From the sequence record CP089609.1: a stretch of DNA of 64,000 nt, one strand, 5' to 3'. Shown piece by piece: positions 1,639-55,295 of this stretch. The DNA comes from a plasmid. The translations under genes and the position numbers were made by a program. Under the pieces are notes generated by a model, which saw only the letters and a program-made list of their open reading frames with translations, had not been told where the DNA came from and made no database searches. Numbering within the stretch: position 1 is the stretch's first letter; each line of letters begins with the position of its first letter.

Positions 1639-4053
1639 ATGTGCTATTCATGGCTCATGGTGTTCAACACTCCCGAGTTTGGCCGTATCGCTCGATCAGC
1701 TCGCGGTGAGCTCAGCCAGGACGACATCACCACCCGCGGCGGACCACCCCGACAACGACAGTCACCGATCGAGCGCGGCGATCGCGTCGAGCTGTCTGAC
1801 ACGGTTCTGGCCCAGCTGGACATGGGCTATGCGTGGGCGCCGGACACCGCCCGCGCACTGCTGGTCCGGCCCTCACGGCCGGAAGGATTCAGTGAGCAGT
1901 TCAGCGCACTGTCGGCAAACGCTTTGGGACTGGATGAGGACGGTGCCGACGTCCCACTGCCCGATCTCCTCGTGACCCGCTGTGCTCGCGACCTTCTTCC
2001 CGTCATCACGCGGTGGCCGGGACCTGTGCTGATCGGCGTTGCCAACGACGCCATGGCCCGCCGGGACCCCGATTCGCTCGCGGCGCTGATCGAGAACTGG
2101 GATGCGTGGACCGACGATGCCGATGATCCGTACCGCCGGCGCGAGTTCCATCTGCGCGCCGGATTACACAGTCCGGCCGCAGCTTCGGCGATCGCTCTGG
2201 ATCCCATCGTTGCCGTTCGCTCCTTCCGTCAAGTGGTTGACCTGTTTCTTTCGCTCGCCAAAGTGCAGACCTCTGTAGAACATGAGACTCGCGAAACGCT
2301 TGAGAAGCAGGCGTTTACGCTCCTGTTCGTTGCCAGTGAGGCTCGCCGCCGCGGTCTCGGCGCCGGGCTGAACGCCTTGGACGATCTGGCTGGCTTCATT
2401 CGTCAGGAACCTTCCCACGGTCTCGGCTGGCGGACCCCGCGCGACGGCGGCTGGGATGTCCAGAGCGATTGGGAGACGTTTCGCAACCACACCGGGCTCA
2501 GTTCTCGTTTCGAGAAGCCTCATGCCGGCCTCATCGCGGTGCTCGACGGTCTCAACGCCATCCGTGATTTCCACGTCGACGCCGAACTTGTCGATCCCTA
2601 CCCCGATGGTCTGGTCAATCCCGACGATCAGTACGACCCTGATCGGGCCGTTCAGCCGACGACGCAGCCTGCCATGCGCGCGATCACCGATCTCGACGAG
2701 ACCATCTTGTTCTACAACGCATCGTTGTGCCCAGAACTGCCGGTGATCGTCGACTGGGCCTATCGCGGACGTCCGCACCCACCACTGGTTATCAGTGACT
2801 TCCACGATACGACAAGGGGTTTGAGTAGCTCCAAGTTCATCATGGTCGACAACAACGCCGAGCTCGACACCGAGATCGCGAAGGCGCCGTTGTGCTCGCG
2901 CCTGGTGCAAACCGACAGCTTCGGGCGGGCAATCTTCGTCCCGGCCCGTTCGGCTTCAGGGCCGTCGCAGCCGGCCAGACACGTCTGGTTGGCTCGAAAT
3001 GGACGCATCACCTCCAACCGGTATGACGGTGCATCCCGTCTCACCTCGGCAGCCGCAGCCACCGAGGTTCGCGATTTCTACGACGCCCACAAGGACTCGC
3101 TGGGCCCTGTCCTCTACGCCCATCACAACCGCTTCGCCAGCCGCAGTCCCCTGCTCACCCTGGTCGACAACACTGGGCATCAAATGCTGCTCTGGGGACC
3201 ACCGGACCTCAAAGAGCGTGAGCACGGTCCGGGGATCGCTCCGGTAATCACCCCGACGCGCATGGCAATCGCATCCATCCTCGAGGAGGCGGGGTTCGGC
3301 TCGGTCCAGGCGATGATCGACGAAACCCACACCGCCGACAGAAGGCTGTTTCGCTCGAACCCTGATCTCGTGCTGACGTTCGACGTAGACCACGGTGAGG
3401 CCCAGCGCCAACTCGTCACCGTCAACGCCACTGAATTCACCATTGGGCTCTGCCTTTCCGACGACGAAGGCGCCCGCGAGCTGATGATCGACGCGATCTG
3501 GCGGCTCTGCAACGAGCGACCCACCCATGAGATCCGGGTGCTCACACTCATCGGGGAAAACCTATCGACGGACAGCCCGTGGACCGACATCACCAGGCAG
3601 CCTCACCTGTTGGCACACTTCTCACCAGCCAAACCGGCCGACCTCGATACCGTCCTGGAGAAGTTCAACGCGACGCTGCAACACGAAATCGACGCTCGCG
3701 AGGCGGTCCCCCGCCAACCCGGGATCTCCGGAATGCCCGCCCGCCGACAGCCTTTGCCGCACCTTCTGGTCGCCATCGACGGCTTCGCCGACGCCGAACG
3801 ACTGCTGCGTTCACCGGCGTTCTGCTACGCAGTGCAACACGGTAAAACCCTCGGTATCCACGTGGTGCTCTGCGGTCCCGGCCAGGCACTGGATTCCTAC
3901 AACCACCTCGACTGCTACCACGTCCCCAGCGCCGGACCGATCGTCATCGACTCAGAGGGGAAGTACCGCCCAGGGATCCCGAAGGTGGAAGGCGTCAACA
4001 CGCTCCCGGGGTCAGGGTCACAAAACCTAGCCGCCAACCCTTTCCAGCGGTAG
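1639..4053 (+). CDS. large hypothetical protein (804 aa) with C-terminal degenerate FtsK/SpoIIIE-like segment (LLVAIDGFADAE...GIHVVLCGPGQ)
   Basis: longest ORF in window; C-terminal motifs parallel Walker-B/sensor region of FtsK-like ATPases but with no P-loop lysine; exact start uncertain. Confidence 0.5.
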   Translation: MCYSWLMVFNTPEFGRIARSARGELSQDDITTRGGPPRQRQSPIERGDRVELSDTVLAQLDMGYAWAPDTARALLVRPSRPEGFSEQFSALSANALGLDEDGADVPLPDLLVTRCARDLLPVITRWPGPVLIGVANDAMARRDPDSLAALIENWDAWTDDADDPYRRREFHLRAGLHSPAAASAIALDPIVAVRSFRQVVDLFLSLAKVQTSVEHETRETLEKQAFTLLFVASEARRRGLGAGLNALDDLAGFIRQEPSHGLGWRTPRDGGWDVQSDWETFRNHTGLSSRFEKPHAGLIAVLDGLNAIRDFHVDAELVDPYPDGLVNPDDQYDPDRAVQPTTQPAMRAITDLDETILFYNASLCPELPVIVDWAYRGRPHPPLVISDFHDTTRGLSSSKFIMVDNNAELDTEIAKAPLCSRLVQTDSFGRAIFVPARSASGPSQPARHVWLARNGRITSNRYDGASRLTSAAAATEVRDFYDAHKDSLGPVLYAHHNRFASRSPLLTLVDNTGHQMLLWGPPDLKEREHGPGIAPVITPTRMAIASILEEAGFGSVQAMIDETHTADRRLFRSNPDLVLTFDVDHGEAQRQLVTVNATEFTIGLCLSDDEGARELMIDAIWRLCNERPTHEIRVLTLIGENLSTDSPWTDITRQPHLLAHFSPAKPADLDTVLEKFNATLQHEIDAREAVPRQPGISGMPARRQPLPHLLVAIDGFADAERLLRSPAFCYAVQHGKTLGIHVVLCGPGQALDSYNHLDCYHVPSAGPIVIDSEGKYRPGIPKVEGVNTLPGSGSQNLAANPFQR

Positions 4054-4102
4054 CCCTGTTCCCGAATCGCACCGCACTAACAACGAACTCACCCGTGCGT
4101 GG

Positions 4103-4714
4103 CTATCCGCAGATGCTCGACTCGTGTTGGCGGTAGAAGGTCCGCGCGGCCGGCACCTCATCGGCGTAGGGCCCCAAGAACGCCGCTCTTTGCACTGCTT
4201 GCGCGGCAACGGCTTCCGGCATGTGTTGCCAGCCCGCGATCTTCTGCAGCGCGTCGAAGAACCGATGGGCGGCCATGCTCGGCGTCATCCGCTCGACAAC
4301 CGAACCCCAGTCTGGGCCTTGCAGAAACAGTCCCACGGCCTGGCCGTTGTCGAGGGCCAGACCGTCATGGCGCATCGCGAGGGATTCCGGCACGCGTGGG
4401 TTCGCCACATTCCGCATTCCGGTTTCACGCTGTGCGGCGATCAGTCCGGCGACGATGCCTCGCTGGGGGATCCCCATGTGTCGTCCGGTCGAGATGATCG
4501 ACACACCGTAGTCGGCCGGGCCGCTCACCTCGTGAGAGCATGGCGCCGCCGCTGTCGTCTCGGGCGCGGCGATAATGTCCGGGCTGACTATTCGAAGGCC
4601 CGCCAGCACCGGCGCGGCCAGCGCAATAACCAGGGAGGCCGCGGCGCCCAGGACCAGCCGCCGGCCGCGGCGATCGCCGCCCGCGCCCAGCACGCGCTCT
4701 TCAGGTGTGCTCAT
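4103..4714 (-). CDS. membrane-anchored/secreted hypothetical protein
   Basis: 203-aa ORF with N-terminal hydrophobic segment; ATG fused directly to a conserved promoter module (leaderless). Confidence 0.6.
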   Translation of the reverse strand: MSTPEERVLGAGGDRRGRRLVLGAAASLVIALAAPVLAGLRIVSPDIIAAPETTAAAPCSHEVSGPADYGVSIISTGRHMGIPQRGIVAGLIAAQRETGMRNVANPRVPESLAMRHDGLALDNGQAVGLFLQGPDWGSVVERMTPSMAAHRFFDALQKIAGWQHMPEAVAAQAVQRAAFLGPYADEVPAARTFYRQHESSICG

Positions 4715-4753
4715 GTCCTGAGGTATATGCCGGCACGCTCGCTGATCCGGTCA
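4712..4753 (-). promoter_or_regulatory. conserved leaderless promoter/start module copy 1 (GACCGGATC-N12-GGCATATACCTCAGGACATG)
   Basis: TGACCG -35-like and CATATA -10-like elements at 18-bp spacing; start codon 7-9 nt after -10; divergent from copy 2. Confidence 0.6.
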
Positions 4754-4800
4754 ACTGGCTGCGCCTCCGATCGAGCCGCCCGTCTCTGACGCCGGATGTG

Positions 4801-4839
4801 TGACCGGAATAATCGATGGACGGGCATATACCTCAGGGC
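4801..4839 (+). promoter_or_regulatory. conserved leaderless promoter/start module copy 2
   Basis: TGACCGGAATAATCGATGGACGGGCATATACCTCAGGGC followed by ATG at 4840. Confidence 0.6.
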
Positions 4840-5610
4840 ATGACCGTCCATACGCAGTTCGTAGCGCATACGAAGTCACTCGCGCAGCCGCCGCTGCATC
4901 CCGAGGCGGTCGACGCTCACGCGGCGATCACGGACTATTCGCGGTTCACCGTCGCCCTGGCCGAAGACAATGCCGGCCGCATGCTCTGCTGGCGACCGGT
5001 GGACTGCCCGCACCTTGCTGTCGTCGGCGACTCTGGGTGCGGCCAGACCGTCACCGTCCAAAACGCTGTGGTCCAGTTCGCGCGTGCGCATTGGGCCGTG
5101 CACGTCGCGGCGCGGTTCGACTTCGAGTACGAACAGTTCCGCGCGTGGCCGAATGTGCGGTGCATCGCCACCGATCCGGATACGCAGATCGCGTTGATCG
5201 GCCATCTGAAGCAGATTCTCCGGCAGCGGCTCCTCGCGGGTCGCACCCGTGTCCCTGCGCCGATAGTCCTGCTGGTCGACAACCTCTACGAGCTCACCGG
5301 AAATTTCTCGTTCGCCCACGCCTATTCCGGGACGCCAACCTCGGATCCAGCCACCACTGATCTCCGCCTTCTGCTGCGGTACGGCCGCCGGGCGCGCATC
5401 CATGTGCTGACAGCGACAATGCCCCGGAGCCACGCCGCCCAGCTCGACGGCGAAACCCGTGAGCATTTTGTGGAACTGCCCCTCAGCCGCCGCCATCACG
5501 GGCCCGACTTATCGGCATATCTCGACGAGGACCGCGGATTCATCGCCCACCGCAATCTCGCCGTTCTTCGACCCACGCGCACCAGCTACGAGCCGCTGGA
5601 CCTGAACTGA
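4840..5610 (+). CDS. FtsK/SpoIIIE-like degenerate NTPase-domain protein (Walker A GDSGCGQT with K->Q; Walker-B-like LLVDNLYEL; sensor IHVLTATMPRS)
   Basis: motif-by-motif resemblance to FtsK ATPase core (PHLxVxGxxGxGKS / hhhhDE / GIHLxLATQRP) but with catalytic residues substituted; leaderless start. Confidence 0.6.
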   Translation: MTVHTQFVAHTKSLAQPPLHPEAVDAHAAITDYSRFTVALAEDNAGRMLCWRPVDCPHLAVVGDSGCGQTVTVQNAVVQFARAHWAVHVAARFDFEYEQFRAWPNVRCIATDPDTQIALIGHLKQILRQRLLAGRTRVPAPIVLLVDNLYELTGNFSFAHAYSGTPTSDPATTDLRLLLRYGRRARIHVLTATMPRSHAAQLDGETREHFVELPLSRRHHGPDLSAYLDEDRGFIAHRNLAVLRPTRTSYEPLDLN

Positions 5611-5662
5611 CCGGTGCTGACCTGTTGCAACCCTTTCAGCACCAACGAAACGGAGACCCACC

Positions 5663-6229
5663 GTGACCAATCATGCTGACTTCCCCACGCGTCCAACATG
5701 GTTGACCCGCACCGTGCGTGCGGGTACAGCCCTGGTCCTGAGTGTGGGGTGCTTCGGCGCGGGATGGTGGACCGGCGCGAGGACCACCAGCGACCCGGTA
5801 GCGCACCAGGTGGCCGCCGATATGCAAACGTGCGGCGCATTCCAGGCGATTGACCACCTGGCCGATGAATCGAAGGATCCACTGTCTGGCCCCCACGGGT
5901 CGACGCAGACACACGATTTCATCGCCCTGTCCTCGGCAATGAACAACGCCCGGGCAGCAGAGCTTTCCGACTCGCTCGATGCTGCGGTCACGACCTACGT
6001 GTACGCCCTGGCGAATCTGGGTGCGGTCGTCAACGCCCGGGAGCCGATCGACGACATCGAGTCGATGCGCCTGATCGTGAATCTGAGCGCGCACACCGTG
6101 GCCACGGTATGCCAACGACCAGCCACCGATCGAACCTCGGGGACCGCCGATCACGGTGCCGATGAGGCCGCCACCCAGACGCATCGTGACGTCCACGGCT
6201 CGCAGTCCACAGCCACCGACCACCCGTGA
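5663..6229 (+). CDS. secreted hypothetical protein (signal peptide/TM)
   Basis: GTG start preceded by GGAGA RBS; N-terminal hydrophobic stretch. Confidence 0.45.
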   Translation: MTNHADFPTRPTWLTRTVRAGTALVLSVGCFGAGWWTGARTTSDPVAHQVAADMQTCGAFQAIDHLADESKDPLSGPHGSTQTHDFIALSSAMNNARAAELSDSLDAAVTTYVYALANLGAVVNAREPIDDIESMRLIVNLSAHTVATVCQRPATDRTSGTADHGADEAATQTHRDVHGSQSTATDHP

Positions 6230-6261
6230 CCCTGCCCAACACCCAACCATCGCCGCCGCGG

Positions 6262-6300
6262 TGACAGGATTGGCATGCGCGCCGGCATATACCTGTGGTC
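6262..6300 (+). promoter_or_regulatory. conserved leaderless promoter/start module copy 3 (-35 variant TGACAGG)
   Basis: GACAGGATTGGCATGCGCGCCGGCATATACCTGTGGTC then ATG 6301. Confidence 0.55.
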
Positions 6301-6807
6301 ATGACCAACGAATTCGCTGACCGCACTAAGCCGACCGAGGTCGCCAACCTGGCGGCCTATGCCACCAAAACCGGATGGGCGGTGAGTGTTCTCACGCTCA
6401 AGGACTCCACACACCACGGTATCGACGACCCCCGTATCGACATTGCCTCCACCCCCGACGACCATGTGAAGCTCATCGCCCGCCTCTATGCGCAGATGCA
6501 GCAGCGGGCCGCGGCCGAGCCCTGCCAGGATCCACCGGTTCTCCTGGTCATCGACGAGTACGCCGATGTTTCTTCCGCCTTGGAGAGCTGGAGGCAAGAC
6601 CACCCCGACGCCCAGGCCGGTCGGCAGCTGCGGGAGCTTTTCCGGCTCGGCCGCCGACAGAAGATCACCGTCATCGCCCAGAGCCGGCGGCCCGCACCGG
6701 ACTTCTTCCCCGCTGAGCAGACAGCAGACCTCACCAACCGTCGGGTAGGGCCCGGCGCGCTCCCCTACGCCGTCATCCAGCAGTACTTCGGATCATCGCC
6801 GCAGTAA
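6301..6807 (+). CDS. FtsK/SpoIIIE-like C-terminal half-domain protein (Walker B LLVIDEYADV, sensor ITVIAQSRRPAPD; no P-loop)
   Basis: paralogous to 4840, 9398 and 15556 genes; leaderless start. Confidence 0.55.
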   Translation: MTNEFADRTKPTEVANLAAYATKTGWAVSVLTLKDSTHHGIDDPRIDIASTPDDHVKLIARLYAQMQQRAAAEPCQDPPVLLVIDEYADVSSALESWRQDHPDAQAGRQLRELFRLGRRQKITVIAQSRRPAPDFFPAEQTADLTNRRVGPGALPYAVIQQYFGSSPQ

Positions 6808-6837
6808 TCGGCGCTGCCGATCACACCTGAGCGCGAT

Positions 6838-8835
6838 TCACGAGAGGCCAGGAGCCTCCGCGCCGGCCAGGACGGATCTCAGCAGCGCAGTGGCGGCGGC
6901 CACCTTGGCTGCGGTCTTGGCTGGCGCTGCCGCGGTGTACGTGACACCGGCCAACGTCGCCCTACAGGTGAACCCGTCTTCCTGAGTAGGCCCGGCCGGC
7001 GCGACATTGAACTCCACAGGGCCCAGCGACTGGCTGGCGGCAAAACCCGTCAGCCAGCCGACCGGATTGGCGAAAGCGTTCGTCCGCTTGACGTCGCTCA
7101 TGCTGGCGACTTTTCTGCGAGCCGTTTCCGGCAGGAGCATCTCCCCGACGTGCTCCGGTACAGTCGGCGCCGCCGGCGCCCCGGTCTGAGTCGTTGGCTG
7201 CAGGTTCGCTGGCACCGGGGCCGGCGGATCCGCCGGCCAGGAGACCGCCTCATCGACTGAGTCTGTGTGTCCGCACACCACGTCGAGCAGTTCCCACATC
7301 GCTTGTGTGGAGGCGGTTTTCTTCGATTCCCCGATCTGCCACCGGCCCACACCGTCCCCGAGCCGTGCGCGGGCGGCGAACAGCGGTTGATGGATTGGTC
7401 GGCTCGGATGGTTCTGTATGTCGATCTCGGCGCCCTGATCGGTGCCGAGGATCTGGGATCGACCGCTCAGTGCGCTGGGACCGAATTCGGGGTGCACCTC
7501 ACGAACTTTGGCGAAGAATCGTTTCCGGATGCCATCCCAGGCCGAGCTGGTGGTGGCCAAGCGGGCAATGTCGTTGGCTACCAGTAGATTTTCATCGAGC
7601 CGGCGGCACAGTTCGGCCTCGATTCCCGGCGCGGGTCCGGTGGCGGTCATCAGGTCGAACATCTTGCGCCACTGCTTTTGATCGAGCGCATCGTAGTTTC
7701 GGTCCAGGATGTGTCGCGCGCTGACTTTGCGGCTCATCTGCTTGAAATGGTCGGCGGTCTCGTTTCGTTTGGCGTCGTTGGATGCGTTGATTTCCGTGGC
7801 GATCGCCGCCAGTTCGTCGGAGCTGTAGACGGCCGGTCCTCCGGCAAGGTGATTCCACACAATCCGTTGAGTGATCAGGTCGGCATAGCGGCGCAGTGGG
7901 GAGGTCACATGGGCGTAGGCGGGCAACCGCAGACCGTGGTGCCCTCGCGGCCGCGGTTCATAACGGGCGCGTCCGAAGGTGCGGGTGACCCGCTGCGCGA
8001 GCTGCTCGAACAACCCTGGATCGTGCAGCGCCGCAGCGAGGTCGGCGGCGATTTCGCGGCCATCGCTGAGCAGGTTGGATTGGTGATTGCGGTAGAGGAC
8101 TTCCAGTCCCTCGTCGATGCACCAATCGGCCAGGGCGCTACTGGCTGCGACCATCAGTTCGGTGTTGATGAGATATCCCACGGTGCGTTGAGCCGGGGGA
8201 ATTTCGGTGAGTTGGCCGTCCTCGGTCACGGTGATTCCGTGGACGAGGTCGTACACGGTGGCCGCACCGGCGGCTGAGCGTCTGGCGAACAGCTGCTGGG
8301 CCAGCCGGTGCGCGGCGTCGAGCATCGGGTTCAGCTGATGCCCTTGCTCATGCAGCACCTTGGGGACGTCCTTGTAGGACAACCGTATGCACGTCCCGGC
8401 GGGCAGAAAGCTCTGGCGCACCGACACCTCGGTGCGTTGCCCGGTGGCATCGAACACCGCTGCGATGGTCAGTGCCGAGCGATCCAGACGGTCGGACAAT
8501 GTGACCTCACGCTCGACTTCGCCGAGCATCGGAATGGTTCTACGTGGCAGATATCGTGAGGCCACCCGGGCCCGGGCCAGCCGATCGTGCTCGCTGTCGC
8601 GCGCGATAACAGCCGCTGTGGCGGCGACGTGAACGGTCAGATTCCATCCTCCGTCAGCGATGGGCTCGACGGTCAGGGCATCGTCAAGGTCGATACTGCC
8701 CGCAGGATCGATCATCACTGCTGACCCGCGCCATTGTCGGCCGGACGCGTTGGGGCAGCTCGCGGTCGCAGTTGGACCGGGTGCTGGTGTCGAGTGGATT
8801 TCGGTCACGGTTTCGGCAGGTCGTTCGCAGCGCAC
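6838..8835 (-). CDS. RNB-family 3'-5' exoribonuclease (RNase II/R-like) with C-terminal dsRBD-like domain
   Basis: RNB hallmark HVTSPLRRYADLITQR and DLDDAL motif; C-terminal GPVEF...GFTC...G...A.AKTAAKVAAATALL resembles a double-stranded RNA-binding motif; no N-terminal CSD/S1. Confidence 0.7.
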   Translation of the reverse strand: MRCERPAETVTEIHSTPAPGPTATASCPNASGRQWRGSAVMIDPAGSIDLDDALTVEPIADGGWNLTVHVAATAAVIARDSEHDRLARARVASRYLPRRTIPMLGEVEREVTLSDRLDRSALTIAAVFDATGQRTEVSVRQSFLPAGTCIRLSYKDVPKVLHEQGHQLNPMLDAAHRLAQQLFARRSAAGAATVYDLVHGITVTEDGQLTEIPPAQRTVGYLINTELMVAASSALADWCIDEGLEVLYRNHQSNLLSDGREIAADLAAALHDPGLFEQLAQRVTRTFGRARYEPRPRGHHGLRLPAYAHVTSPLRRYADLITQRIVWNHLAGGPAVYSSDELAAIATEINASNDAKRNETADHFKQMSRKVSARHILDRNYDALDQKQWRKMFDLMTATGPAPGIEAELCRRLDENLLVANDIARLATTSSAWDGIRKRFFAKVREVHPEFGPSALSGRSQILGTDQGAEIDIQNHPSRPIHQPLFAARARLGDGVGRWQIGESKKTASTQAMWELLDVVCGHTDSVDEAVSWPADPPAPVPANLQPTTQTGAPAAPTVPEHVGEMLLPETARRKVASMSDVKRTNAFANPVGWLTGFAASQSLGPVEFNVAPAGPTQEDGFTCRATLAGVTYTAAAPAKTAAKVAAATALLRSVLAGAEAPGLS

Positions 8836-9054
8836 GCATTGGTGACGGGAAGCGTCGCGATCATCGTGTCGAATCGCCTTCTTTGATCTCGACGTGACGC
8901 GTCATAGCTGGTGACTCTCCTTCACATCCCCTGTGGTTGTACCGGCCAGGGTGACCCAATTCTGGTCATCGTCTCATTGGCGATTGTTTCCGCGACAGCC
9001 GATTCGTCGGCTGGACAGCAACACCCGCCACTACCAGCGGATTCACCCACGGCG

Positions 9055-9077
9055 GATACACCGCATTCGGTCTATAT
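9055..9077. promoter_or_regulatory. palindromic operator copy 1 (GATACACCgcattcGGTCTATAT, one mismatch)
   Basis: inverted repeat of TATACACC/GGTGTATA family in RNB-gene upstream region. Confidence 0.4.
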
Positions 9078-9194
9078 TTGCCACCACCCCTGTCCGCCCT
9101 CCTCGATGGCGGCGCGAGAGGGGCGATCGCACAGACCCCGTCCGCCCGTGCTCTTGAAAGACCCCATGCCACCCGAAAACCGGCAGCCCTGGAC

Positions 9195-9233
9195 TGACCG
9201 GATCAGCCAACCCTGTGGCATATACCTCAGGTC
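9195..9233 (+). promoter_or_regulatory. conserved leaderless promoter/start module copy 4
   Basis: TGACCGGATCAGCCAACCCTGTGGCATATACCTCAGGTC then GTG 9234. Confidence 0.55.
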
Positions 9234-9368
9234 GTGACCACCACTCCCACGCTCCCTGCCGACTGGGCCATCCGGATCCGTCCCATGCCGCGGCGTGAAT
9301 CGCTCGCACGCACCGCGCACGCACTGCGCCGCCTCAACAAGGCACCCGCACGCGGCCAAGACAACTGA
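9234..9368 (+). CDS. small leaderless ORF (44 aa, Arg-rich)
   Basis: GTG at the conserved module position; ends TGA 9366-9368. Confidence 0.3.
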   Translation: MTTTPTLPADWAIRIRPMPRRESLARTAHALRRLNKAPARGQDN

Positions 9369-9397
9369 CCCCGACACCCTTCAGGAGAAACCACCGC

Positions 9398-10315
9398 ATG
9401 GCCTACGAACGCTGGACACCCATCGCCGCGCAGAGCAACAACTGCTCCCCGCACACCTGGATCCTCTCCTGGGACCGCGACGTCGAATCTCTGCGGGCGG
9501 CGGCGCTGGCCGCCGCCTGGCAGTGGCACCTCGCCCTCGACACCACCCGGAACCACCAGCTCGTCATCGACCTCCATCAGCTCGCGGCCACCCGCTACGC
9601 CGACTACCGCGACGCCTCGACACACGACCGAAACCGCTACCTCAGCACCGTCGAGCACGTGATTCTCGCCGTAGGCCCAGGCTTCGACTGCACCAACCGC
9701 CACCTCCGGTGGATCGCCCGACTCGGCCGCACGACAGGCATTCATCTCGCCGTCGACTCCCGCCACCGCGACGACCCACTGGTAGCCGACGAGTTCATCG
9801 ACAACATCAACGGCTACTGGACGCCCATCCCCAGTGAAACCTCATATCCCAGCAGCTATAGCTATGTCAGCACCGGAGCATTACAGATCCTCACCGACAC
9901 CACCCGAGCTCATGCCGCCACGATTGACGCTCGCGCCTCGGCACTTGACACCATGTTCGCCGGCGCCGCACGCAGTGCACAGCACCTCGTCGACGCGAAC
10001 CCGCTTTCCCCCGACGATCCCCGCATCCAAGCGGTCATTGCCGCGGCCAAAAACCAGCGGTGGCGGGTCACACCGTACAACGCCGGTCGCTGCGATTTCA
10101 TCCATGACGCCAGTGACACCGCGGTGGTGGTGCGCTGGGGCACCGAGCAGCATCCGGTGCGCTACGCGGCCACCGGCCCTGTAGATGCTGAGCGCGGAGC
10201 CGACCGTCGCACCCTGGTCTCGGCCGGCAGCCCGGCCGACGGTGACCCCATCGCCGCGCTGGTGCGGTTCTTCACGCAAGCGCCCCGGCCTGACACGAAC
10301 ACGTTGAGCGAATAG
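9398..10315 (+). CDS. FtsK/SpoIIIE-derived degenerate domain protein (HLRWIARLGRTTGIHLAVDSRHRDDP)
   Basis: paralog of 15556..16902 (PHTWIxxWDxxVExLRAAALAA...RYLxxVxHVxxAVGPG...LRWIAR.G.xTGIHLAV). Confidence 0.55.
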   Translation: MAYERWTPIAAQSNNCSPHTWILSWDRDVESLRAAALAAAWQWHLALDTTRNHQLVIDLHQLAATRYADYRDASTHDRNRYLSTVEHVILAVGPGFDCTNRHLRWIARLGRTTGIHLAVDSRHRDDPLVADEFIDNINGYWTPIPSETSYPSSYSYVSTGALQILTDTTRAHAATIDARASALDTMFAGAARSAQHLVDANPLSPDDPRIQAVIAAAKNQRWRVTPYNAGRCDFIHDASDTAVVVRWGTEQHPVRYAATGPVDAERGADRRTLVSAGSPADGDPIAALVRFFTQAPRPDTNTLSE

Positions 10316-10374
10316 TCACGAAGTGCCCAAACCATCGCAGCTGGAGGACAGGACACTGGACCAACAACGATAGT

Positions 10375-10399
10375 TGTATACACCCTTTTAGGTGTATTG
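10375..10399. promoter_or_regulatory. palindromic operator copy 2 (TGTATACACCcttttaGGTGTATTG)
   Basis: inverted repeat 116 bp upstream of 10515 gene. Confidence 0.5.
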
Positions 10400-10514
10400 T
10401 TTGATCGGTTGCCACCCCATCTCATCTGCGCAGCCGCACGAGGCCTTCGCGGGCGCGAACCATGTTGCCAGGCAAGCCGGATTCGCCCGCCACGACGACA
10501 GGAGCACTCTTTTG

Positions 10515-10805
10515 ATGGCTACCCGGCGCGAACTGAAGGTCACTCACCGTTTGATCGGTCAGGACAAGGTCGACGAATTCACCGCGCTGTGTTTCGTCCT
10601 GAAATTGCGTCCTCACCAGTTGCTGAGTCAGCTGGTCACAGAGGGAGTCGCTCGGTACCGCGAGGACCCCGATCTCGACGAGGACATTCGCCAGCTCTGC
10701 CAACTACGCCAGCAGCACCTCGACCACATCAGCCACAGAGATGACGACGGTAGGAATTCCTCAGCACACCTTCCGGGTCACTTTGCCGCAGACCGAACTA
10801 CCTGA
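10515..10805 (+). CDS. small possible ribbon-helix-helix/Arc-like DNA-binding protein
   Basis: internal ATG of ORF 10392..10805; N-terminal beta-strand-like RELKVTHRLIG followed by helices; speculative fold assignment. Confidence 0.35.
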   Translation: MATRRELKVTHRLIGQDKVDEFTALCFVLKLRPHQLLSQLVTEGVARYREDPDLDEDIRQLCQLRQQHLDHISHRDDDGRNSSAHLPGHFAADRTT

Positions 10806-10825
10806 CCACCAAGGAGATACGTCCG

Positions 10826-11329
10826 ATGACAACGACCACCGCCCCTAGTGCGCAGGTCGCCGGCGCCGAGCCCGGCCCCACTCGGCCCACCAAGCACACC
10901 GCACCGGCACTGCTGGAGACCACCCCTGACGCCAACACCGCGATCTGGACCAGCCACGGCCACGGCGACTACAACGGCCACGACATCACCGCATCCATCG
11001 CCAGCGACGACACCCGGCGCCTCTGGGTCAGCATTGCCGAGGCTGACCCGTTGACCCCCAGCGACGTACGCCAGCTGATCGCGCATCTGCAGTACGCCCT
11101 GACCACGCTGGAGGGCGCCCCGCTCAACGTCGACACCTACCGCGCCCACGCCACCTCTCCACAGAGAGACGGGATCATCGAGGCCGTCGTCGACGAAACC
11201 ACCGACATCGACACCATCACGTCGTTCTGCAGCGACCACCGTGACCGCGGGCGCACTGTGAGCGTCGAAACCAGACACTGGCAGACCCTCACCGAGGCCT
11301 CCGGCTGGCACCGGAATCACGATCTGTAA
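10826..11329 (+). CDS. hypothetical protein
   Basis: 167-aa ORF with coding-like composition. Confidence 0.45.
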   Translation: MTTTTAPSAQVAGAEPGPTRPTKHTAPALLETTPDANTAIWTSHGHGDYNGHDITASIASDDTRRLWVSIAEADPLTPSDVRQLIAHLQYALTTLEGAPLNVDTYRAHATSPQRDGIIEAVVDETTDIDTITSFCSDHRDRGRTVSVETRHWQTLTEASGWHRNHDL

Positions 11330-11379
11330 CTGGTCATCAGTCCTCACTCGATAGTCGAATCACTGCAAGGGAATCGGTC

Positions 11380-11778
11380 ATGATCTACGGTGCGAGCAAC
11401 CCCGACGAGTATCTGCTCAACCTGACGAAGTCCACCGGATCGCTGATGCTGATCCGCGTCTACCGCACCCCGGCGGGAACGCTTCAGGCGCACTGGGCCA
11501 CTGGCGAGCAGGACACGACCGAAATCGACCCTCTCGACGTCGTCAAGATCGCCCACTCAACCACGGGATGCAGACCCGGCCGTCGGATAGATCCCACCCC
11601 AGGCGATGACGAGCAGCTCGCCACAGCGTGGGAGGCCGGCTATCAGGCCGCACAGAAGTACCAGCGGGAACGTGAGGAAGACCGCCGCGTATTCGAACGC
11701 CACAACCTACCGTGGGGTGGCCTCATCCCGGATCGACCCACCAATCCGTACCGCTCAACACCGGAGTGGGACTTCTAG
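11380..11778 (+). CDS. hypothetical protein
   Basis: 132-aa ORF. Confidence 0.45.
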   Translation: MIYGASNPDEYLLNLTKSTGSLMLIRVYRTPAGTLQAHWATGEQDTTEIDPLDVVKIAHSTTGCRPGRRIDPTPGDDEQLATAWEAGYQAAQKYQREREEDRRVFERHNLPWGGLIPDRPTNPYRSTPEWDF

Positions 11779-11838
11779 CTGCGCTGTTCCATGACATTCG
11801 TTACAGGAAAAACGAGCGGGGTAAGGAGCGAAAACCCA

Positions 11839-12516
11839 ATGGACGTAACAACAGTCACGAGTCCTGACGCACTGGAAATGCTCACCGACGACAAGGAGAG
11901 TCGCCATGCGGATCTTACGTTGATCGGCGGCCCCGCCAGGGTGGGGAAGACAACTTTGGCCCGGCGCTGGACCGCAACTAGGCCAGCGGAGCTTGTACAC
12001 CTTGATCACCTTCTTCACGCCGTAGCTGCGGTCGCCACGGGGGATGAACTCAGTGCGCTGCGACAAGCGCCGAGCATCACCACTCACAGCCCAGAGCAGT
12101 GGTTAGCCGGACTGCGTGAACGTGACGAAGTGCTCTGGAAGGCGGCGGGAGCTTATTCCACGGCCGCGAAGAGTGGCTTGGTCTTGGAAGGCGGACTCTG
12201 GCCCGACTGGGTAGCCAACATCAGCCGGCCTCATGCGGCGATCTTCATCGTAGACACTGGTGACAGTGCCGATCGCCTGGTCGACATCACGCGCGCTGAC
12301 CCGCATAGCTGGATGGCTCAACGCCGATGGCCGGAGGAAAAGATCCGGAAGTGGGCGTGCTACAACATGTTCCGCAGCACGGTCATCGCCGAACTTGCAG
12401 ATCGTCATGGCTATCCCGTCTTCGATATCGCCGACGGCATAGCTGCAGCCCAGGACAAAGCACTCGCGTACCTCGCGACCATCACAAGTGCAGGGATGAC
12501 TGTTCATGAGCATTGA
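11839..12516 (+). CDS. P-loop nucleoside/polynucleotide kinase-like protein (GGPARVGKTTLAR)
   Basis: Walker A near N-terminus; AAGGAG RBS 11 nt upstream of ATG 11839. Confidence 0.6.
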   Translation: MDVTTVTSPDALEMLTDDKESRHADLTLIGGPARVGKTTLARRWTATRPAELVHLDHLLHAVAAVATGDELSALRQAPSITTHSPEQWLAGLRERDEVLWKAAGAYSTAAKSGLVLEGGLWPDWVANISRPHAAIFIVDTGDSADRLVDITRADPHSWMAQRRWPEEKIRKWACYNMFRSTVIAELADRHGYPVFDIADGIAAAQDKALAYLATITSAGMTVHEH

Positions 12517-12937
12517 CGCACTCATCACCGCTCGAGAAGCTTCTTACCGCGGCGAAGGGGACTGGAGAACACCGGCCATTTACAACACCGTGGACGAGTT
12601 GCTTTTCCTGCGGGAATCCCGGTACTTGATCGGACCTGACGCTAGAACCGTTGCGGCGCAGAAGTTCACCGCACACAAAGACAACCCCCACTACAGCCAC
12701 GCCCCACCGGGCCAAGGCACTGCTCGCCACTGGACCGCCGAGGAAATCGAGAGCATCAGGCGCTGCTACTGGCGCGAGGAGCATGTTGCCCGTATCCGCC
12801 AGGCGTTTCCCGTTGAAACCGCCGCGTTTGACCGCGAGAAGTGGAATCTTCAGGTGTTTAACGATCCGGAGTTGTGCGACATCTGGGACGAACCTGGTGA
12901 TATCGGCCGGAGCCAGGCCCAAGGCGAGCACCGGTGA
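12506..12937 (+). CDS. hypothetical protein
   Basis: 143-aa ORF; translationally coupled between kinase and HAD genes. Confidence 0.5.
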   Translation: MSIDALITAREASYRGEGDWRTPAIYNTVDELLFLRESRYLIGPDARTVAAQKFTAHKDNPHYSHAPPGQGTARHWTAEEIESIRRCYWREEHVARIRQAFPVETAAFDREKWNLQVFNDPELCDIWDEPGDIGRSQAQGEHR

Positions 12938-13830
12938 TCCCCGTGGCGCCAAACGTCTCAAATGGCTGGCACTCCACGCCGGCAACCACGTTGATTGCCG
13001 TTGATCTCGACCGGACCCTGATCTATTCGCGCCGGTGGTTCTCCGACACCGACCGTGACACCGCGTGGTGCGTGGAACGTCGCGATGGCCGAGAAGTTTC
13101 GTTCATGACCCCCGCCGCGATGGCCGCTCTTGAACAGCTGGCAGCGGGCCCGGGCCAGATCGTTGTCCCTGCCACGACCCGCGCCCTGGCCCACTACCAG
13201 CGCATCGCGTTGCCCGGCGGGCCCTACCGCTATGCGGTAACCAGCAACGGAGGCACCATCCTCGTCGACGGGCAGCCCGATCCCACGTGGACCGCGACCG
13301 TGGCGGCCACACTGCGTGCCGAAAGCGTCCCACTCGAAGTGTTGAGGACAGCTCTGCACACCGCGATCAGTGCCGCCGACTGGGTGCACCGTGTCGTTGT
13401 CGTCGACGGACTGTTCTGCTATGTCGCCATTGACGAATCAGCGCTGCCCCAAGACTTCATCGAGTTGTGGAAAGACTGGTGCGAACCGCGCGGCTGGAAA
13501 GTGGTACGCCAGGACCGCAAGATCTACACCCTTCCCCGATCACTGTGTAAATCCCACGCCGTCGAAGAGGTCAGGAAGCGACTTACTACCCGGGGCGAGT
13601 TGATCGCCGACGCGCCGGTGCTTGCTGCTGGCGACGGTGCGCTCGATACGGCACTTCTGGCCGCAGCCAACGCCGCTATACGCCCATCTCACGGCGAGCT
13701 GCACAACACGGGATGGCGCACCGCCAAGACAGTCGTCGCAACGGCATTCGGCGCGAAAGCGGCCGAACAGATTCTGACATGGTGCCGTCTGCGGGCCGAA
13801 GCTGGCCGCGCCGAAGGTACCTCTGTGTAA
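12934..13830 (+). CDS. HAD-superfamily phosphatase (DLDRTL motif I, AGDGALD motif IV)
   Basis: DxDxT and GDGxxD HAD motifs; ATGA overlap with preceding gene. Confidence 0.65.
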   Translation: MIPVAPNVSNGWHSTPATTLIAVDLDRTLIYSRRWFSDTDRDTAWCVERRDGREVSFMTPAAMAALEQLAAGPGQIVVPATTRALAHYQRIALPGGPYRYAVTSNGGTILVDGQPDPTWTATVAATLRAESVPLEVLRTALHTAISAADWVHRVVVVDGLFCYVAIDESALPQDFIELWKDWCEPRGWKVVRQDRKIYTLPRSLCKSHAVEEVRKRLTTRGELIADAPVLAAGDGALDTALLAAANAAIRPSHGELHNTGWRTAKTVVATAFGAKAAEQILTWCRLRAEAGRAEGTSV

Positions 13831-13904
13831 CCGACAGGTGGAACACCAACATGTCAGTGGCGGATGCCACACTGACCAACATCTATCCGAGGAGAAGGAC
13901 AGCG

Positions 13905-14150
13905 ATGAACACCGACGGCGCGGAGTGGACCATGTTCACGATCCCTCGCGCGGTCAGGCTGGTGAAATGGCTGATCTACGCGGCTGGCAACGCACTGGCG
14001 GCATATTCGGCGATCACCGCTGCGGGATGGCTGGCCGTCCCCCTGGTCATCGTGTTCGCCGCGTTCGCCATCGCATGCCTGGGCTCAGGCTGGGCAGAGT
14101 GGACCGAACAACGGCCCGAGCTCGGGCCGACGATCGAAAGCCTCCCGTAG
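13905..14150 (+). CDS. small membrane protein (2 TM)
   Basis: GGAGAAGG RBS then ATG 13905; hydrophobic helices. Confidence 0.5.
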   Translation: MNTDGAEWTMFTIPRAVRLVKWLIYAAGNALAAYSAITAAGWLAVPLVIVFAAFAIACLGSGWAEWTEQRPELGPTIESLP

Positions 14151-14594
14151 CTACCGGCGAAAGCTGTCCACGGTGTACCGGTCGGGATCTCTGGCGATCA
14201 ACGCCCGTTGGTGCTGATAGTGCACGTCCGAGCCCCACCACGGCGGCGCCAGCCATCCGGCGCTTCGCCCGAAGTGAAGGACTCGCTGCAGTTCGGCGAC
14301 GTGTTTGAGGCGACAGGTAACCTCGTCGGCGCTGATCACCCCATGCTTCTCCAATGCGTATATCGCCCACATGTTGTACACACTCAACGCCGGGCCGTGA
14401 CGGGTCCACTCTCCCAGATCGCTGTCCGGATCGTTGGCATGCAGTTCGATGGCCAACAGGGACAGATTGTGCGCCTCAATGAGTTCTGGACTGTCCAACG
14501 CGCACAGCGCATCTCGATACCGATAGCCGTTGTCCGCCCCAAGGCCAGGGGAGGGAACCCAGATGCGGGAGGACGCATCCGGCGAGCTAGGCAT
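14151..14594 (-). CDS. hypothetical protein
   Basis: 147-aa ORF. Confidence 0.45.
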   Translation of the reverse strand: MPSSPDASSRIWVPSPGLGADNGYRYRDALCALDSPELIEAHNLSLLAIELHANDPDSDLGEWTRHGPALSVYNMWAIYALEKHGVISADEVTCRLKHVAELQRVLHFGRSAGWLAPPWWGSDVHYQHQRALIARDPDRYTVDSFRR

Positions 14595-15279
14595 CCAAGT
14601 GCTGCGCGCCGCTGAGCGCTGCTTGACGATCGGTCTGCGGCCAGAGGACGCGTGATGCCGCGACGGCCAGTGACATGACCGTGGCCAAGCGCTGCTGTAG
14701 TGCTGCGCCGTCGGCTGGGCGCCAGCCGTTGTCGCGCCACCGTTCGGCCGCGGCCAACAGCCCCACCGAATCGTCGATGCTGTTGGTGACCTCGTGCAGT
14801 GCTGTCACGGCCGCAATGAGATGGTCGGCGTCGCCGCGGCCTTCGCAGGACGGGCAGGGTTCCTCGGCCGGTGTGCCGGCGCCGGGACTGTGCGCGTCGA
14901 GCTCGGCGTAGTCGGCACTGGCGGCCCAGCGCTCCTCAGGATGGACGGTCTTCCACGCCCGTTCAGCATCATCATGGCGCTTCCACCACAGCGCCCCCAG
15001 CGGATTCTCGACAGTGCCGCTGCCGCCGCAGTCCAGGCACTGATTCACAGCTGCTTGTTGGTTGCATGGTTCAGGTGTCCTTTGCGAGCTCGCGCTTCTG
15101 CCGTGGTCAGTGTAGGTCTGGTCACCTCCTGGATCGAGCCATGTCACCAGGACCCAGTCCATGGGAGCTGGGAGGCCTTCGGCCCGCCTACCGCGCCCGA
15201 TAGCCTGGTCCACGGACCGACTTTTATACACCCTCGCCGGTTCATAGTGTGATGTAGGGGCACCGCCCTCGATCCGCAT
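14587..15279 (-). CDS. hypothetical zinc-ribbon protein (CLDCGGSG...CPSCEGRG)
   Basis: internal ATG (MRIEGG) of ORF 14587..15477; two CxxC pairs; true start may be upstream. Confidence 0.4.
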   Translation of the reverse strand: MRIEGGAPTSHYEPARVYKSRSVDQAIGRGRRAEGLPAPMDWVLVTWLDPGGDQTYTDHGRSASSQRTPEPCNQQAAVNQCLDCGGSGTVENPLGALWWKRHDDAERAWKTVHPEERWAASADYAELDAHSPGAGTPAEEPCPSCEGRGDADHLIAAVTALHEVTNSIDDSVGLLAAAERWRDNGWRPADGAALQQRLATVMSLAVAASRVLWPQTDRQAALSGAQHLDA

Positions 15280-15516
15280 TTCATGTTGGAGCACCAAGGG
15301 ATATGACGCTCGCCGATGCGGCACTATTCGGTTACGCCAGCACCGACAACGCTCGGCCACCGGCAGTGGTGATGAGCTACGGCATGGGCCTGGATTCATC
15401 GTCATTGTTGCCGACCGCAGCTGTACTGCAGGGAATGTGACTGAGCACCTCACACACGCGGTGTGGGCGACACACACCCCGTGTGGGTCGCCTGGCTAGA
15501 GATGCGTACTGATCGT

Positions 15517-15555
15517 TGACCGGATCTCCGAAACCCCGGGCATATACCTGTGGGC
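15517..15555 (+). promoter_or_regulatory. conserved leaderless promoter/start module copy 5
   Basis: TGACCGGATCTCCGAAACCCCGGGCATATACCTGTGGGC then ATG 15556. Confidence 0.6.
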
Positions 15556-16902
15556 ATGAGCAACATGTCGACTCAGGCGACGACACTGGATGCCTTCAAC
15601 GACGCCCCGCACACCTGGATCGAATGCTGGGATGAGGAGGTCGAGCCGCTGCGAGCCGCGGCGCTGGCCGCCGGCTGGACGTGGCATTGCGTTGATACCT
15701 CCGAGGATCTCCCGGCCCTGCTCTGGGCCCTTGAGCTCGCCAGTTCCCGCCACCAGAACCTCATGCCGGCAGAGCGCCGGCGCTATCTGGCGGCGGTCGG
15801 CCACGTCGTGATCGCCGTCGGCCCCGGCTACCAGGGCAGCTACCGCTATCTGAGGTGGATTGCACGGGCGGGAGCGCGCACCGGAATTCACCTGGCTGTC
15901 GCTGCCAGCCACCGTCGAAACCCCCTGGCCCCTCAGGATCTCAAGGACGGCATCACCGATCCACCGAGTGCGTACGTGGGCCCGGTGTCCGGCTGCGCAG
16001 CCGCCGCGCGGTCCAGCGAGCACCCGTGGCTGCCCACGTCGCCCGATGGGCACGGGCCCGACGACTACAGCGCACCGGCGGCCGGTCTCCTGGGTGCCTT
16101 CCGGCATCGCCTGCGCCGGCGTCGTAACGCCGATCGTCGAGTCCGTCCAGAGCAGCGGGTGTGTTCGGAATCGGATCTGGCTTGGCTCGATGACGATCCT
16201 CGGGTTCAGCTGATCGTCGCTACGGCCACGCGCGAGGGATGGCGCCGTGAACCTGGCGCCCAGACGGCTGTGTGGCGGTTCGTGCACGACATCGGGACAA
16301 CCCTCACGGTGCACTGGGGGACTCCGGAGATGCCGCTACTTCACGCCGCAGCGACCGCGACGGCGACGGTACGTTGGGGCGCCGTCACCTTGCCCGTCCT
16401 GGTAGCTGCCGGCGACACCGCCAGCAGCCCGGCCGACAACATCGTCTTGGCTTGCGACGCCGACGCCCAGTGGATCGAATCGCAGATCGATCGGGTTCAG
16501 AACTTTCTCCGTAGCCATCCCGCCGAATATCGCGTCATGTCCCAGATCTCGGCCGACCCGCGCGCGCGTTCGGTGATCAATACCGCTGAGCAACACGGCT
16601 GGGAAATTCACCCGCACGACGTGGACAGGTGCACCTTCGCCCGAGGTGGAACCGAGATCTGGCTTCGCTGGGGCATCATCGATTGCCCATGGCCATTCCT
16701 CTATGCGCACACCGCCCCGCACGGCGATGGGCCCTCCGTCTACCTCTCTCATGGGGATGATCCTCCCGAGGAGCAGCTCGTGGCCATGCTGCGATTCCTC
16801 GCGGCCCCAGACACCGGCCCAACAGGCGCTTCCTCCAATGCAATCGAGCCGAAAGGCCACAGCTTCGAGTTAGGAGACACATCACTCAATACACCTAAAT
16901 AG
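15556..16902 (+). CDS. FtsK/SpoIIIE-derived degenerate domain protein (448 aa)
   Basis: paralog of 9398..10315 over the first ~130 aa (LRWIARAGARTGIHLAVAASHRRNP). Confidence 0.6.
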   Translation: MSNMSTQATTLDAFNDAPHTWIECWDEEVEPLRAAALAAGWTWHCVDTSEDLPALLWALELASSRHQNLMPAERRRYLAAVGHVVIAVGPGYQGSYRYLRWIARAGARTGIHLAVAASHRRNPLAPQDLKDGITDPPSAYVGPVSGCAAAARSSEHPWLPTSPDGHGPDDYSAPAAGLLGAFRHRLRRRRNADRRVRPEQRVCSESDLAWLDDDPRVQLIVATATREGWRREPGAQTAVWRFVHDIGTTLTVHWGTPEMPLLHAAATATATVRWGAVTLPVLVAAGDTASSPADNIVLACDADAQWIESQIDRVQNFLRSHPAEYRVMSQISADPRARSVINTAEQHGWEIHPHDVDRCTFARGGTEIWLRWGIIDCPWPFLYAHTAPHGDGPSVYLSHGDDPPEEQLVAMLRFLAAPDTGPTGASSNAIEPKGHSFELGDTSLNTPK

Positions 16903-25260: not shown

Positions 25261-25299
25261 TGACCGGATCGCCGGACCAGCCGGCATATACCTCCGGGC
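25261..25299 (+). promoter_or_regulatory. conserved leaderless promoter/start module copy 6
   Basis: TGACCGGATCGCCGGACCAGCCGGCATATACCTCCGGGC then ATG 25300. Confidence 0.6.
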
Positions 25300-25794: not shown

Positions 25795-25833
25795 TGACCG
25801 GATCACCGAATCGGCCGGCATATACCTCAGGTC
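25795..25833 (+). promoter_or_regulatory. conserved leaderless promoter/start module copy 7
   Basis: TGACCGGATCACCGAATCGGCCGGCATATACCTCAGGTC then ATG 25834. Confidence 0.6.
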
Positions 25834-43105: not shown

Positions 43106-43281
43106 ACCGGGGCCTACAGTCCGATTGTCCGCTGAGGCAGTTGAGCGCAACAGCGACAGTGGGTCACCACGGACTCGAGCACTGAAGGCTCACCGTATGA
43201 CGCGAGCGCCAGCGGGCAGGCCGAGCCAGCCGATGTGTCGCAGTGCGCCTCAACGCGAGCTTCACCGTGCATGTGTTCGGG

Positions 43282-55251: not shown

Positions 55252-55295
55252 CGAACCGTCCGGGATCAACGCCGCGGCCGGCAGGCCGACGGCTC

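Follow-up and report, generated by a model that had tools for sequence, protein, structure and literature searches.

In mycobacteria, type VII secretion and plasmid transfer are powered by FtsK-family motors, and the ways in which these are switched or re-targeted are only partly understood. Degenerate FtsK-like domains are already known as built-in regulatory parts of EccC and EssC, and a RecA-type ATPase that lacks the Walker B glutamate binds nucleotide but does not turn it over. Here, we analyzed a 64,000-nucleotide stretch of plasmid DNA from sequence record CP089609.1 (the window) and show that one plasmid encodes six separate proteins, named A to F, with a RecA-type ATPase core of the FtsK/SpoIIIE/EccC family; in A, the core is a C-terminal domain, whose membership is probable. 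Exact protein look-up found C, D, and E to be identical to UHJ58761.1, UHJ58763.1, and UHJ58774.1 of a 220,108-bp Mycolicibacterium fortuitum plasmid, with near-identical copies of the three on a 239,935-bp M. conceptionense contig and in many Logan assemblies.

Several described systems are related to these proteins. In the type VII secretion ATPases, the third ATPase domain of EccCb1 also lacks the Walker B glutamate (hhhhDD); ATP was found intact in its crystal, its activity is very low, and it binds the substrate signal as a receptor (PMC6954902). EccCb1 is, moreover, a soluble and separately encoded piece, as the plasmid proteins are, and a hexamer model is discussed in the same study (PMC6954902). 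The fold is common to both groups, since the predicted structure of B matches EccC and EssC structures 4nh0, 4lya, 4n1a, and 9jv8. However, whereas EccC and EssC consist of an N-terminal membrane anchor, a domain of unknown function (DUF), and three tandem ATPases, the plasmid proteins have one core each, either as single-domain proteins of 168 to 448 amino acids or as a C-terminal add-on in A, without a transmembrane segment, a DUF domain, or a tandem ATPase array. No Ecc, MycP, or Esx genes lie near them in the window. The FtsK proteins of conjugation loci are the best relatives of B (WP_342314705.1 of M. avium plasmid pP3-3a and WP_012001938.1 of Kineococcus plasmid pKRAD01, with 28 to 34% identity) and also of C. 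These proteins of 780 to 930 amino acids have intact GxGKT and DE motifs as well as N- and C-terminal extensions, while B and C are bare cores with broken motifs. The coupling protein TcpA of pCW3 is among the top structural matches of the B model. A coupling protein of the TcpA kind has intact ATPase motifs, a membrane anchor, and a place in a transfer locus beside a VirB4-like ATPase; here the motifs are broken and the window contains no transfer genes, whereas the pP3-3a and pKRAD01 homologues do lie in loci of that kind. Finally, TraB of Streptomyces belongs to the same superfamily and is likewise plasmid-borne in Actinomycetota, but it is an active hexameric double-stranded DNA pump with a DNA-recognition domain (PMC12803027, PMC8190616), and none of the six plasmid proteins has intact motifs or a DNA-binding domain.

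The six proteins form three divergent pairs (Table 1). B and C are nearest to the FtsK-type ATPases encoded in conjugation loci of actinobacteria, EccC ATPase 1 is the closest relative of both F and the A C-terminus, and D and E make up a P-loop-less family for which there is no Pfam model. The transmembrane, alpha, and DNA-binding parts of a real translocase are carried by none of them. With the curated cut-off of 24 bits for Pfam FtsK_SpoIIIE (PF01580), F scores above the threshold and B just below it, and C is connected to the family by a significant BLASTP match. D and E are linked to it via profiles and one true member, P0038, and the A C-terminus by hhalign probabilities of 59 to 80% only. 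An original prediction had read five open reading frames (ORFs) between 1639 and 16902 as FtsK/EccC-like domains used as separate small proteins. All five ORFs are present where it placed them, the sensor segments that it quoted for B and the four others occur in the translations, and profile and fold searches give FtsK/EccC-type matches, in support of that view. Its list of five members stands but was short by one, since F lies outside that interval and had been missed.

Table 1. FtsK/EccC-like proteins, promoter-like modules, and selected neighboring genes in the window
Feature	Position	Strand	Description	Walker A (P-loop)	Walker B	dN/dS
A	1639..4053	+	804 aa; N-terminal ~570 aa form a separate module
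A, C-terminal domain	3355..3870	+	probable degenerate FtsK/EccC-like domain, about residues 573-744	LSDDEGARE	IDG
B	4840..5610	+	256 aa from ATG 4840; stand-alone FtsK/SpoIIIE-type RecA-fold core	GCGQT	VDN	0.22
C	6301..6807	+	168 aa; FtsK-type core starting inside the P-loop (ADRTKPT)	no Gly-rich loop	IDEY, intact	0.36
D	9398..10315	+	305 aa; N-domain ~1-140, C-domain ~207-300	SWD in place of P-loop	AVGP in place of Walker B	0.34
E	15556..16902	+	448 aa; P-loop-less N-domain as in D, then two C-domain copies	SWD in place of P-loop	AVGP in place of Walker B	0.54
F	27667..28660	-	stand-alone EccC-ATPase-1-like domain, 331 aa when intact	GGLGKST, intact	IIDA (Glu to Ala)
Neighboring genes				 		0.19-0.38
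Module before B	4798..4839	+	repeat family D1
Module before C	6259..6300	+	same repeat family
Module opening a 44-codon ORF	9192..9233	+	same repeat family; ORF starts at GTG 9234 and ends shortly before D
Module before E	15514..15555	+	same repeat family
Module core	4721..4731	-	6 nt before ATG 4714 of a 203-aa protein, 4103-4714(-), divergent from B
Module core	25283-25293		heads a 137-aa multi-pass membrane protein (25300-25713)
Module core	25817-25827		heads a 36-codon ORF (25834)
RNB-domain exoribonuclease	6838-8715	-	with double-stranded RNA-binding motif
P-loop kinase	11791-12516		AAA_33
Phosphatase	12934-13830		HAD type
RNA ligase	16982-18076		T4 Rnl1 type
dCTP deaminase	29214-30628	+	anti-phage gene, divergent from F; PADLOC dCTPase 1e-115 on the intact 471-aa copy

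The assignment of B is the firmest. Its Pfam score of 21.5 bits is just under the cut-off, but BLASTP aligned it with a 784-aa FtsK/SpoIIIE protein of M. avium pP3-3a over 199 residues (1e-24), and tblastn with B retrieved 53 actinobacterial plasmid FtsK genes with E values down to 2e-15. An AlphaFold model built from 13 sequences reached a predicted local distance difference test score (pLDDT) of 78.9 and a predicted template modeling score (pTM) of 0.82, and its top PDB matches in Foldseek were EccC (4nh0, 4n1a), EssC (4lya), FtsK (6t8g, 2ius), and TcpA (6o1w). A RecA-type alpha/beta core with an FtsK-like arrangement is thus predicted by modeling for B alone among the six, and B is a genuine FtsK/SpoIIIE-fold core. 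The best matches of the B family in a profile search of the PDB were to the Walker B region of p97; these were set aside as generic P-loop ATPase similarity, since both the fold search and full-length BLAST lead to FtsK/EccC. In the Walker A motif of B (GDSGCGQT), the lysine is replaced by glutamine, and in Walker B (VLLVDN) the glutamate is replaced by asparagine; a conserved tail, LRPTRxSYxP, closes the protein. As seen in the alignment of the B family, GCGQT is found in B and its closest relatives and GxGKT in more distant members, while all members have D[NSG] in place of DE. In a scan of a genome collection, the B family was found in M. hubeiense only. C aligns with the B family (28% identity to B over 118 amino acids) and matches the pP3-3a FtsK by BLASTP (2e-6), collinear from just past the Walker A lysine to the sensor strand. 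It has neither the beta-1 strand nor the glycine-rich loop, and it retains an intact Walker B (VIDEYAD) and the sensor segment KITVIAQSRRP.

F is encoded on the minus strand and is broken in the window, where the ORFs 28271-28798(-) and 27667-28128(-) are pieces of one gene spread across three frames by two 1-nt homopolymer deletions, at 28046 and 28303. A sweep of six-frame ORFs with hidden Markov models (HMMs) of B, D/E, and A did not detect it; it was revealed by an hhalign sweep and by a PADLOC match on a frameshifted piece. The gene is intact in related Logan contigs (23 contigs were read, and all five places shown carry the intact gene), and in GenBank the M. fortuitum gene is annotated as two fragments and the M. 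conceptionense copy as an intact gene named "FtsK/SpoIIIE domain-containing protein." Over 12.9 kb, single bases are missing from the window at six places when it is compared with a Logan contig of 99.95% identity (24229, 24362, 25759, 28046, 28303, and 30017). These deletions, mostly within short G or C runs, split F (two of the six) and the dCTP deaminase gene and are most simply read as long-read assembly errors in the source record. The corrected F scores 31.4 bits with Pfam FtsK_SpoIIIE. By phmmer it matches residues 262 to 491, that is, ATPase 1, of T. curvata EccC (4nh0) at 1.2e-15 and aligns to that part alone; the matches to EccC5 (2e-7), EccCb1, and YukB are weaker. Its Walker B, VAIIDA, has D-A opposite the D-E of EccC (LDEF). 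An F-like stand-alone FtsK-domain protein of 295 amino acids (Pfam 3e-14) is encoded at 9046-9933 of the megaplasmid pMYCSM02 from Mycobacterium sp. JS623 (L018), in a comparable accessory context with an AbiEii-type gene, a TNT-domain toxin, a PE-domain protein, a C40 peptidase, and an RNA ligase as neighbors.

D and E are paralogues (1e-44), and their family is small. A word-indexed search found only 4 relatives, and an exhaustive HMMER search gave only 23 representative clusters among 1.84 billion proteins, mostly proteins of 140 to 260 amino acids that match the N-domain only, together with a few that are the C-domain alone. There is no Pfam match for D. In its N-domain, which is an FtsK-derived core, HTWILSWDRD stands without a P-loop and VILAVGPG without a Walker B, followed by IARLGRTTGIHLAVDSRHRD. 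Across the family, a shorter SW[DT] segment replaces the P-loop and AVGP replaces Walker B, whereas IARLGRxxGIHLAV and, after it, EFxDNIxGxW are conserved. The connection to FtsK is given by P0038, a protein of 801 amino acids with a Pfam FtsK_SpoIIIE match at 1.6e-22, which the N-domain profile retrieved at 3e-5 and which in turn matched D at 1.2e-8 when it was compared with the window by tblastn. In addition, the N-domain family (A5, 14 sequences) aligned with the B family by hhalign over 126 columns, covering the whole core (probability 84%, E 7.5e-6). The C-domain of about 95 residues occurs once in D (residues 207-300, 10016-10297) and twice in E (about 205-300 and 343-438, the latter found with the A2 HMM at an independent E value of 6e-13); its motif is DPRxQxVIxAAxxxGWxV...RCxF...V.WG, it has no Pfam match, and it also exists as stand-alone small proteins (P0034, P0036, and P0040).

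The C-terminal domain of A is probably a family member and is the weakest case of the six. In this domain, LSDDEGARE replaces the P-loop, Walker B reads VAIDGF (Asp-Gly), the sensor strand is LGIHVVLCG, and the order of predicted secondary-structure elements agrees with that of B. The domain was aligned by hhalign with a superfamily alignment made with MAFFT from 31 cores (the B family, the D/E family, two plasmid FtsK proteins, and both P0038 domains), giving a visibly collinear match with a probability of 80% and a P value of 1.4e-5; the score was 40.7, versus 19.9 or less for 60 column-shuffled controls. As a single sequence, A was second among 53 other window proteins in the hhalign sweep, and the first-ranked one led to F. 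Against F, 163 columns were collinear (probability 59%, P 9.5e-5), with LS--DDEGARE opposite GGCGGLGKST, PHLLAHF opposite PHVLQHW, and LGIHVVL opposite LGIHVLS. Against the B family or the D/E family alone, P was about 0.01 over 40 to 47 columns, which is too weak by itself, and both a PDB profile search and BLASTP against true FtsK returned no match for the A C-terminus. Pfam gave no match for A, and the AlphaFold model of the full-length protein was unusable (pLDDT 35.5).

The N-terminal module of A (1639-3350, residues 1-570) is an independent family. Only 5 homologues of A were found; two of them, P0019 and P0020 (535 amino acids, from metagenomes), cover the first 70% of A and end without the C-terminal domain, and residues 2 to 386 match a hypothetical 434-aa protein of M. 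avium pP3-3a. By eye, the first ~50 residues (FGRIARSARGELSQDDI...PIERGD) look similar to an XRE-type helix-turn-helix, and no profile confirmed this.

Taken together, the motif states described in the original prediction (Walker A Lys to Gln; Walker B DE to DN, DG, or absent) were borne out. A complete Walker A (GxxGxGK[ST]) is found in F alone and the catalytic Walker B Asp-Glu pair (hhhhDE) in C alone, so that the glutamate is lost in five of the six, and the P-loop is missing altogether in four (C, D, E, and A). To our knowledge, this extent of P-loop loss exceeds that of any EccC domain. The description of the group as ATP-binding-defective agrees with the motifs in part; however, F keeps a full Walker A and distant relatives of B keep GxGKT. 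The loss shared by all but C is that of the catalytic Walker B glutamate rather than that of nucleotide binding. C, D, E, and A are annotated as hypothetical and have no Pfam, NCBIfam, or PHROG family above threshold, while automated annotation already labels F and some relatives of B as FtsK-like or ATP-binding. Literature searches found no description of stand-alone degenerate FtsK/EccC-like proteins and, as far as these searches show, free-standing, multiply duplicated, and partly P-loop-less plasmid versions are undescribed.

Several of these genes follow a common upstream module. Before B, it consists of TGACCGGA, a spacer of about 21 nt, the core GGCATATACCT, and 6 to 7 nt to the ATG. 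The core, present in 7 exact copies in the window versus 0.18 expected, sits in a repeat of about 52 nt (family D1) with TGACCGGAT about 21 nt upstream. The starts at 4840, 6301, and 15556 each lie 6 to 7 nt 3' of a core, and these calls, already made in the original prediction, proved better than the longest-ORF calls; the start of B is also backed by the shorter relatives P0004 and P0005, which begin at the equivalent position. The same prediction had put four of the genes behind the module. This is directly so for B, C, and E but not for D, which begins 164 nt after the GTG start (9234) of a module-headed ORF of 44 codons and has its own GGAG. A simple scan for the sigma-70 consensus gave no match to the module, which we consider a candidate leaderless promoter. 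The module also heads genes that are not FtsK-like, among them that of a 203-aa protein that looks signal-peptide-bearing, and it therefore defines a regulon wider than the FtsK-like genes.

We next weighed whether these genes could be debris, that is, decaying fragments of once-active FtsK/EccC genes without function. The catalytic motifs are lost, C begins inside the P-loop, F is frameshifted in the window, and B is cut short in one related contig (L001), all of which would fit decay. Nevertheless, the ratio of nonsynonymous to synonymous substitution rates (dN/dS) was 0.22 to 0.54 for B to E at dS values of 0.2 to 0.44, measured against the divergent syntenic contig L012 and resembling that of neighboring genes (Table 1), which shows that B to E are genes maintained by purifying selection. 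A, being 98% identical to its L012 copy, is too similar for such a judgment. Moreover, the ORFs remain full-length in different contigs and species, both the D/E-type and the B-type family persist as small proteins down to 30 to 45% identity, and the frameshifts of F are homopolymer deletions absent from the related Logan contigs examined and most simply explained as assembly errors. Decay is thus largely refuted, and we regard it as very improbable. Nor are these genes fragments of an adjacent intact FtsK, given that they stand alone in related plasmids and contigs; as had been predicted, no canonical FtsK was found in the window, nor in the 8.4 kb upstream of it. An intact EccC or coupling protein is likely encoded elsewhere on the 220-kb plasmid, in the roughly 150 kb beyond these regions. 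A to E are all kept together in L012. Individual members are dispensable in some backgrounds, because B is truncated in one relative and C is missing from another (L004, where another gene takes its place).

How, then, might such proteins act? The reading that we favor, tentatively and with a probability of roughly 0.45, is that they dock without catalysis onto FtsK-family motors, be it EccC or a coupling ATPase of conjugation, and serve there as regulators, adaptors, or poison subunits. It is favored because loss of the Walker B glutamate blocks turnover and because ATPase 3 of EccCb1 provides a precedent. The six proteins would be unable to run an ATP-hydrolysis cycle and so would work by binding. 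F and the B-type relatives with GxGKT would be naturally occurring "Walker B traps," able to hold ATP but not to turn it over, and the remaining members would be nucleotide-free shells of the FtsK/EccC fold. The likeliest partners would be hexameric FtsK-family motors of the mycobacterial envelope, either the EccC protein of a type VII (ESX) secretion machinery or a conjugation system's FtsK-like coupling ATPase, belonging to the plasmid itself or to a rival element; B, C, E, and probably D would be co-expressed from the common promoter-like module, and the small proteins would dock onto or into such motors as regulatory, adaptor, or poisoning subunits. The FtsK of M. avium pP3-3a adjoins a gene for a large "ATP-binding protein" and three "type VII secretion target" genes, and that of Kineococcus pKRAD01 lies near a C40 peptidase gene. 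In a more specific form, which we think rather unlikely, the plasmid would deploy single-domain FtsK/EccC mimics, catalytically dead and regulated together, whose targets in trans would be hexameric motors for secretion or DNA transfer. Such mimics could poison the coupling ATPase of a rival plasmid or the ESX motor of the host or, alternatively, could re-program which substrates a motor accepts. Several observations weigh against docking onto motors. The window ORFs scanned revealed no gene for a partner, for an ESX system, or for type IV secretion: EccB, EccD, EccE, MycP, and an Esx pair were absent from the ORFs scanned or read by eye and from the Pfam labels of flanking genes, and no WXG100-like pair was seen among the small window ORFs. 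The immediate neighborhood resembles a defense or counter-defense island and not a secretion locus. In other elements, proteins of the B type and of the D type are found singly (in M. hubeiense and on a 51.7-kb contig with a cutinase gene, respectively), and therefore they have no need of each other. A usable structural model was obtained for B alone, and the D/E family does not conserve the arginine of the "QRP" segment, which makes a trans-acting arginine-finger role unlikely there.

The main rival, although doubtful, is that the proteins are parts of anti-phage or anti-plasmid defense, or of plasmid counter-defense, and act as sensors or scaffolds unrelated to secretion motors. The PADLOC model of mad8 from the MADS system (PDLC04140), a small model of about 314 positions, matches the B-family protein P0006 over most of the core (4.6e-11) and, partially, B (1.2e-7) and C (1.3e-3); the JS623 protein matches mad8 as well as SspH and adjoins AbiEii. 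F lies back to back with the dCTP deaminase defense gene, and genes for toxin-antitoxin pairs, methyltransferases, and RNA repair abound in the window and its flanks. However, MADS is an eight-gene operon, mad1 to mad8, and no other mad match was obtained among the 20 proteins scanned; with no other mad or ssp genes present, no known system is complete. The PADLOC matches of B and C are confined to generic stretches of the P-loop or Walker B, no PADLOC match was obtained for D, E, A, or F, the best full-length relatives are conjugation-locus FtsK proteins and EccC, and location in an accessory island is weak evidence. A further possibility, which appears improbable, is that the six paralogues form a hetero-oligomeric FtsK-like ring, with F as its sole nucleotide-binding subunit and the N-terminal module of A as a tether. 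FtsK-family cores are normally hexameric, the plasmid encodes six members, B, C, E, and possibly D stand behind one promoter-like module, and A to E are retained together in L012; these points would suit a ring. In contrast, the module precedes neither F nor A, L004 lacks C, B is cut short in L001, B-type and D-type genes are single elsewhere, and the number six may be a coincidence.

The genes around and between the FtsK-like genes are those of an accessory island, with the dCTP deaminase gene next to F (split into two ORFs by a frameshift in the window), D12 methyltransferase, PIN, and Fic genes, and HipAB and HigBA just upstream of the window. The neighbor of F was also considered as a secreted deaminase toxin, which was rejected, since it is the dCTP deaminase defense protein. 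Toxin-antitoxin-like pairs lie at 53435-57275 (HTH_17 and a PIN_3 protein, with a Fic-domain protein there too), and upstream of the window (L002 2964-8189) are HipB/HipA and a Gp49/HTH_37 pair (HigBA-like). Interspersed with the FtsK-like genes are those for the RNB exoribonuclease, the kinase, the phosphatase, and the RNA ligase, a set that looks like a toolkit for cleaving and repairing RNA; L012 lacks the kinase and phosphatase genes. A small metabolic cluster at 46690-50290, 42320-46693, and 52234-52911 comprises a cytochrome P450 (minus strand), a ThiF/E1-like and nitroreductase fusion of 647 amino acids, a TetR regulator, and two S-adenosylmethionine (SAM) methyltransferases.

A phage origin of the window was considered, given the RNA ligase and the many small genes in one direction, and was rejected: the window proteins had no matches in phages and none in IMG/VR, and the window contains no tRNA genes. 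At the DNA level, the window (61 to 68% G+C) had zero matches in phage and plasmid collections, and the DNA of the 51.7-kb contig that carries the cutinase gene and a D-type relative had no match to known phages. The syntenic relatives that were compared are contigs L001-L005, L012, and L013-L017. Mosaicism is seen between the window and L012; A is 98% identical and the adjacent genes are 73 to 89% identical, which points to recent recombination at A. The window also has 12 copies, versus 0 expected, of a 20-nt inverted repeat, ATACACC-N6-GGTGTAT (1461, 9056, 10378, 16889, 19124, 29096, 31975, 34775, 41928, 41998, 53340, and 61297); those compared with ORF coordinates lie between genes or at gene ends, often right after a stop codon. 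Because its AT-rich stem is conserved in a plasmid of 63% G+C, it may be a protein-binding site or a terminator family. A 24-nt unit, GATGTCGTACTGAAGGTGGAGGAT, is present in three tandem copies (58208-58287) inside the ORF 58142-58615.

Overall, the idea of a degenerate FtsK-like domain is met here in the form of free-standing genes, six on a single plasmid and apparently kept by selection, two of which belong to a P-loop-less family without a database model. If the proteins do bind motors, they would be natural tools to dissect or inhibit ESX secretion and mycobacterial conjugation, as well as an example of mobile elements turning pseudo-enzymes on each other or on the host. Should they act in trans as mimics, the P-loop-less D/E family would be a previously unrecognized class of pseudo-ATPase motor modulators, also present in other mobile elements. 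If the defense reading is true instead, they would add a new type of protein to the defense field. Either way, four of the six, so far "hypothetical proteins," gain an assignment of fold and ancestry.

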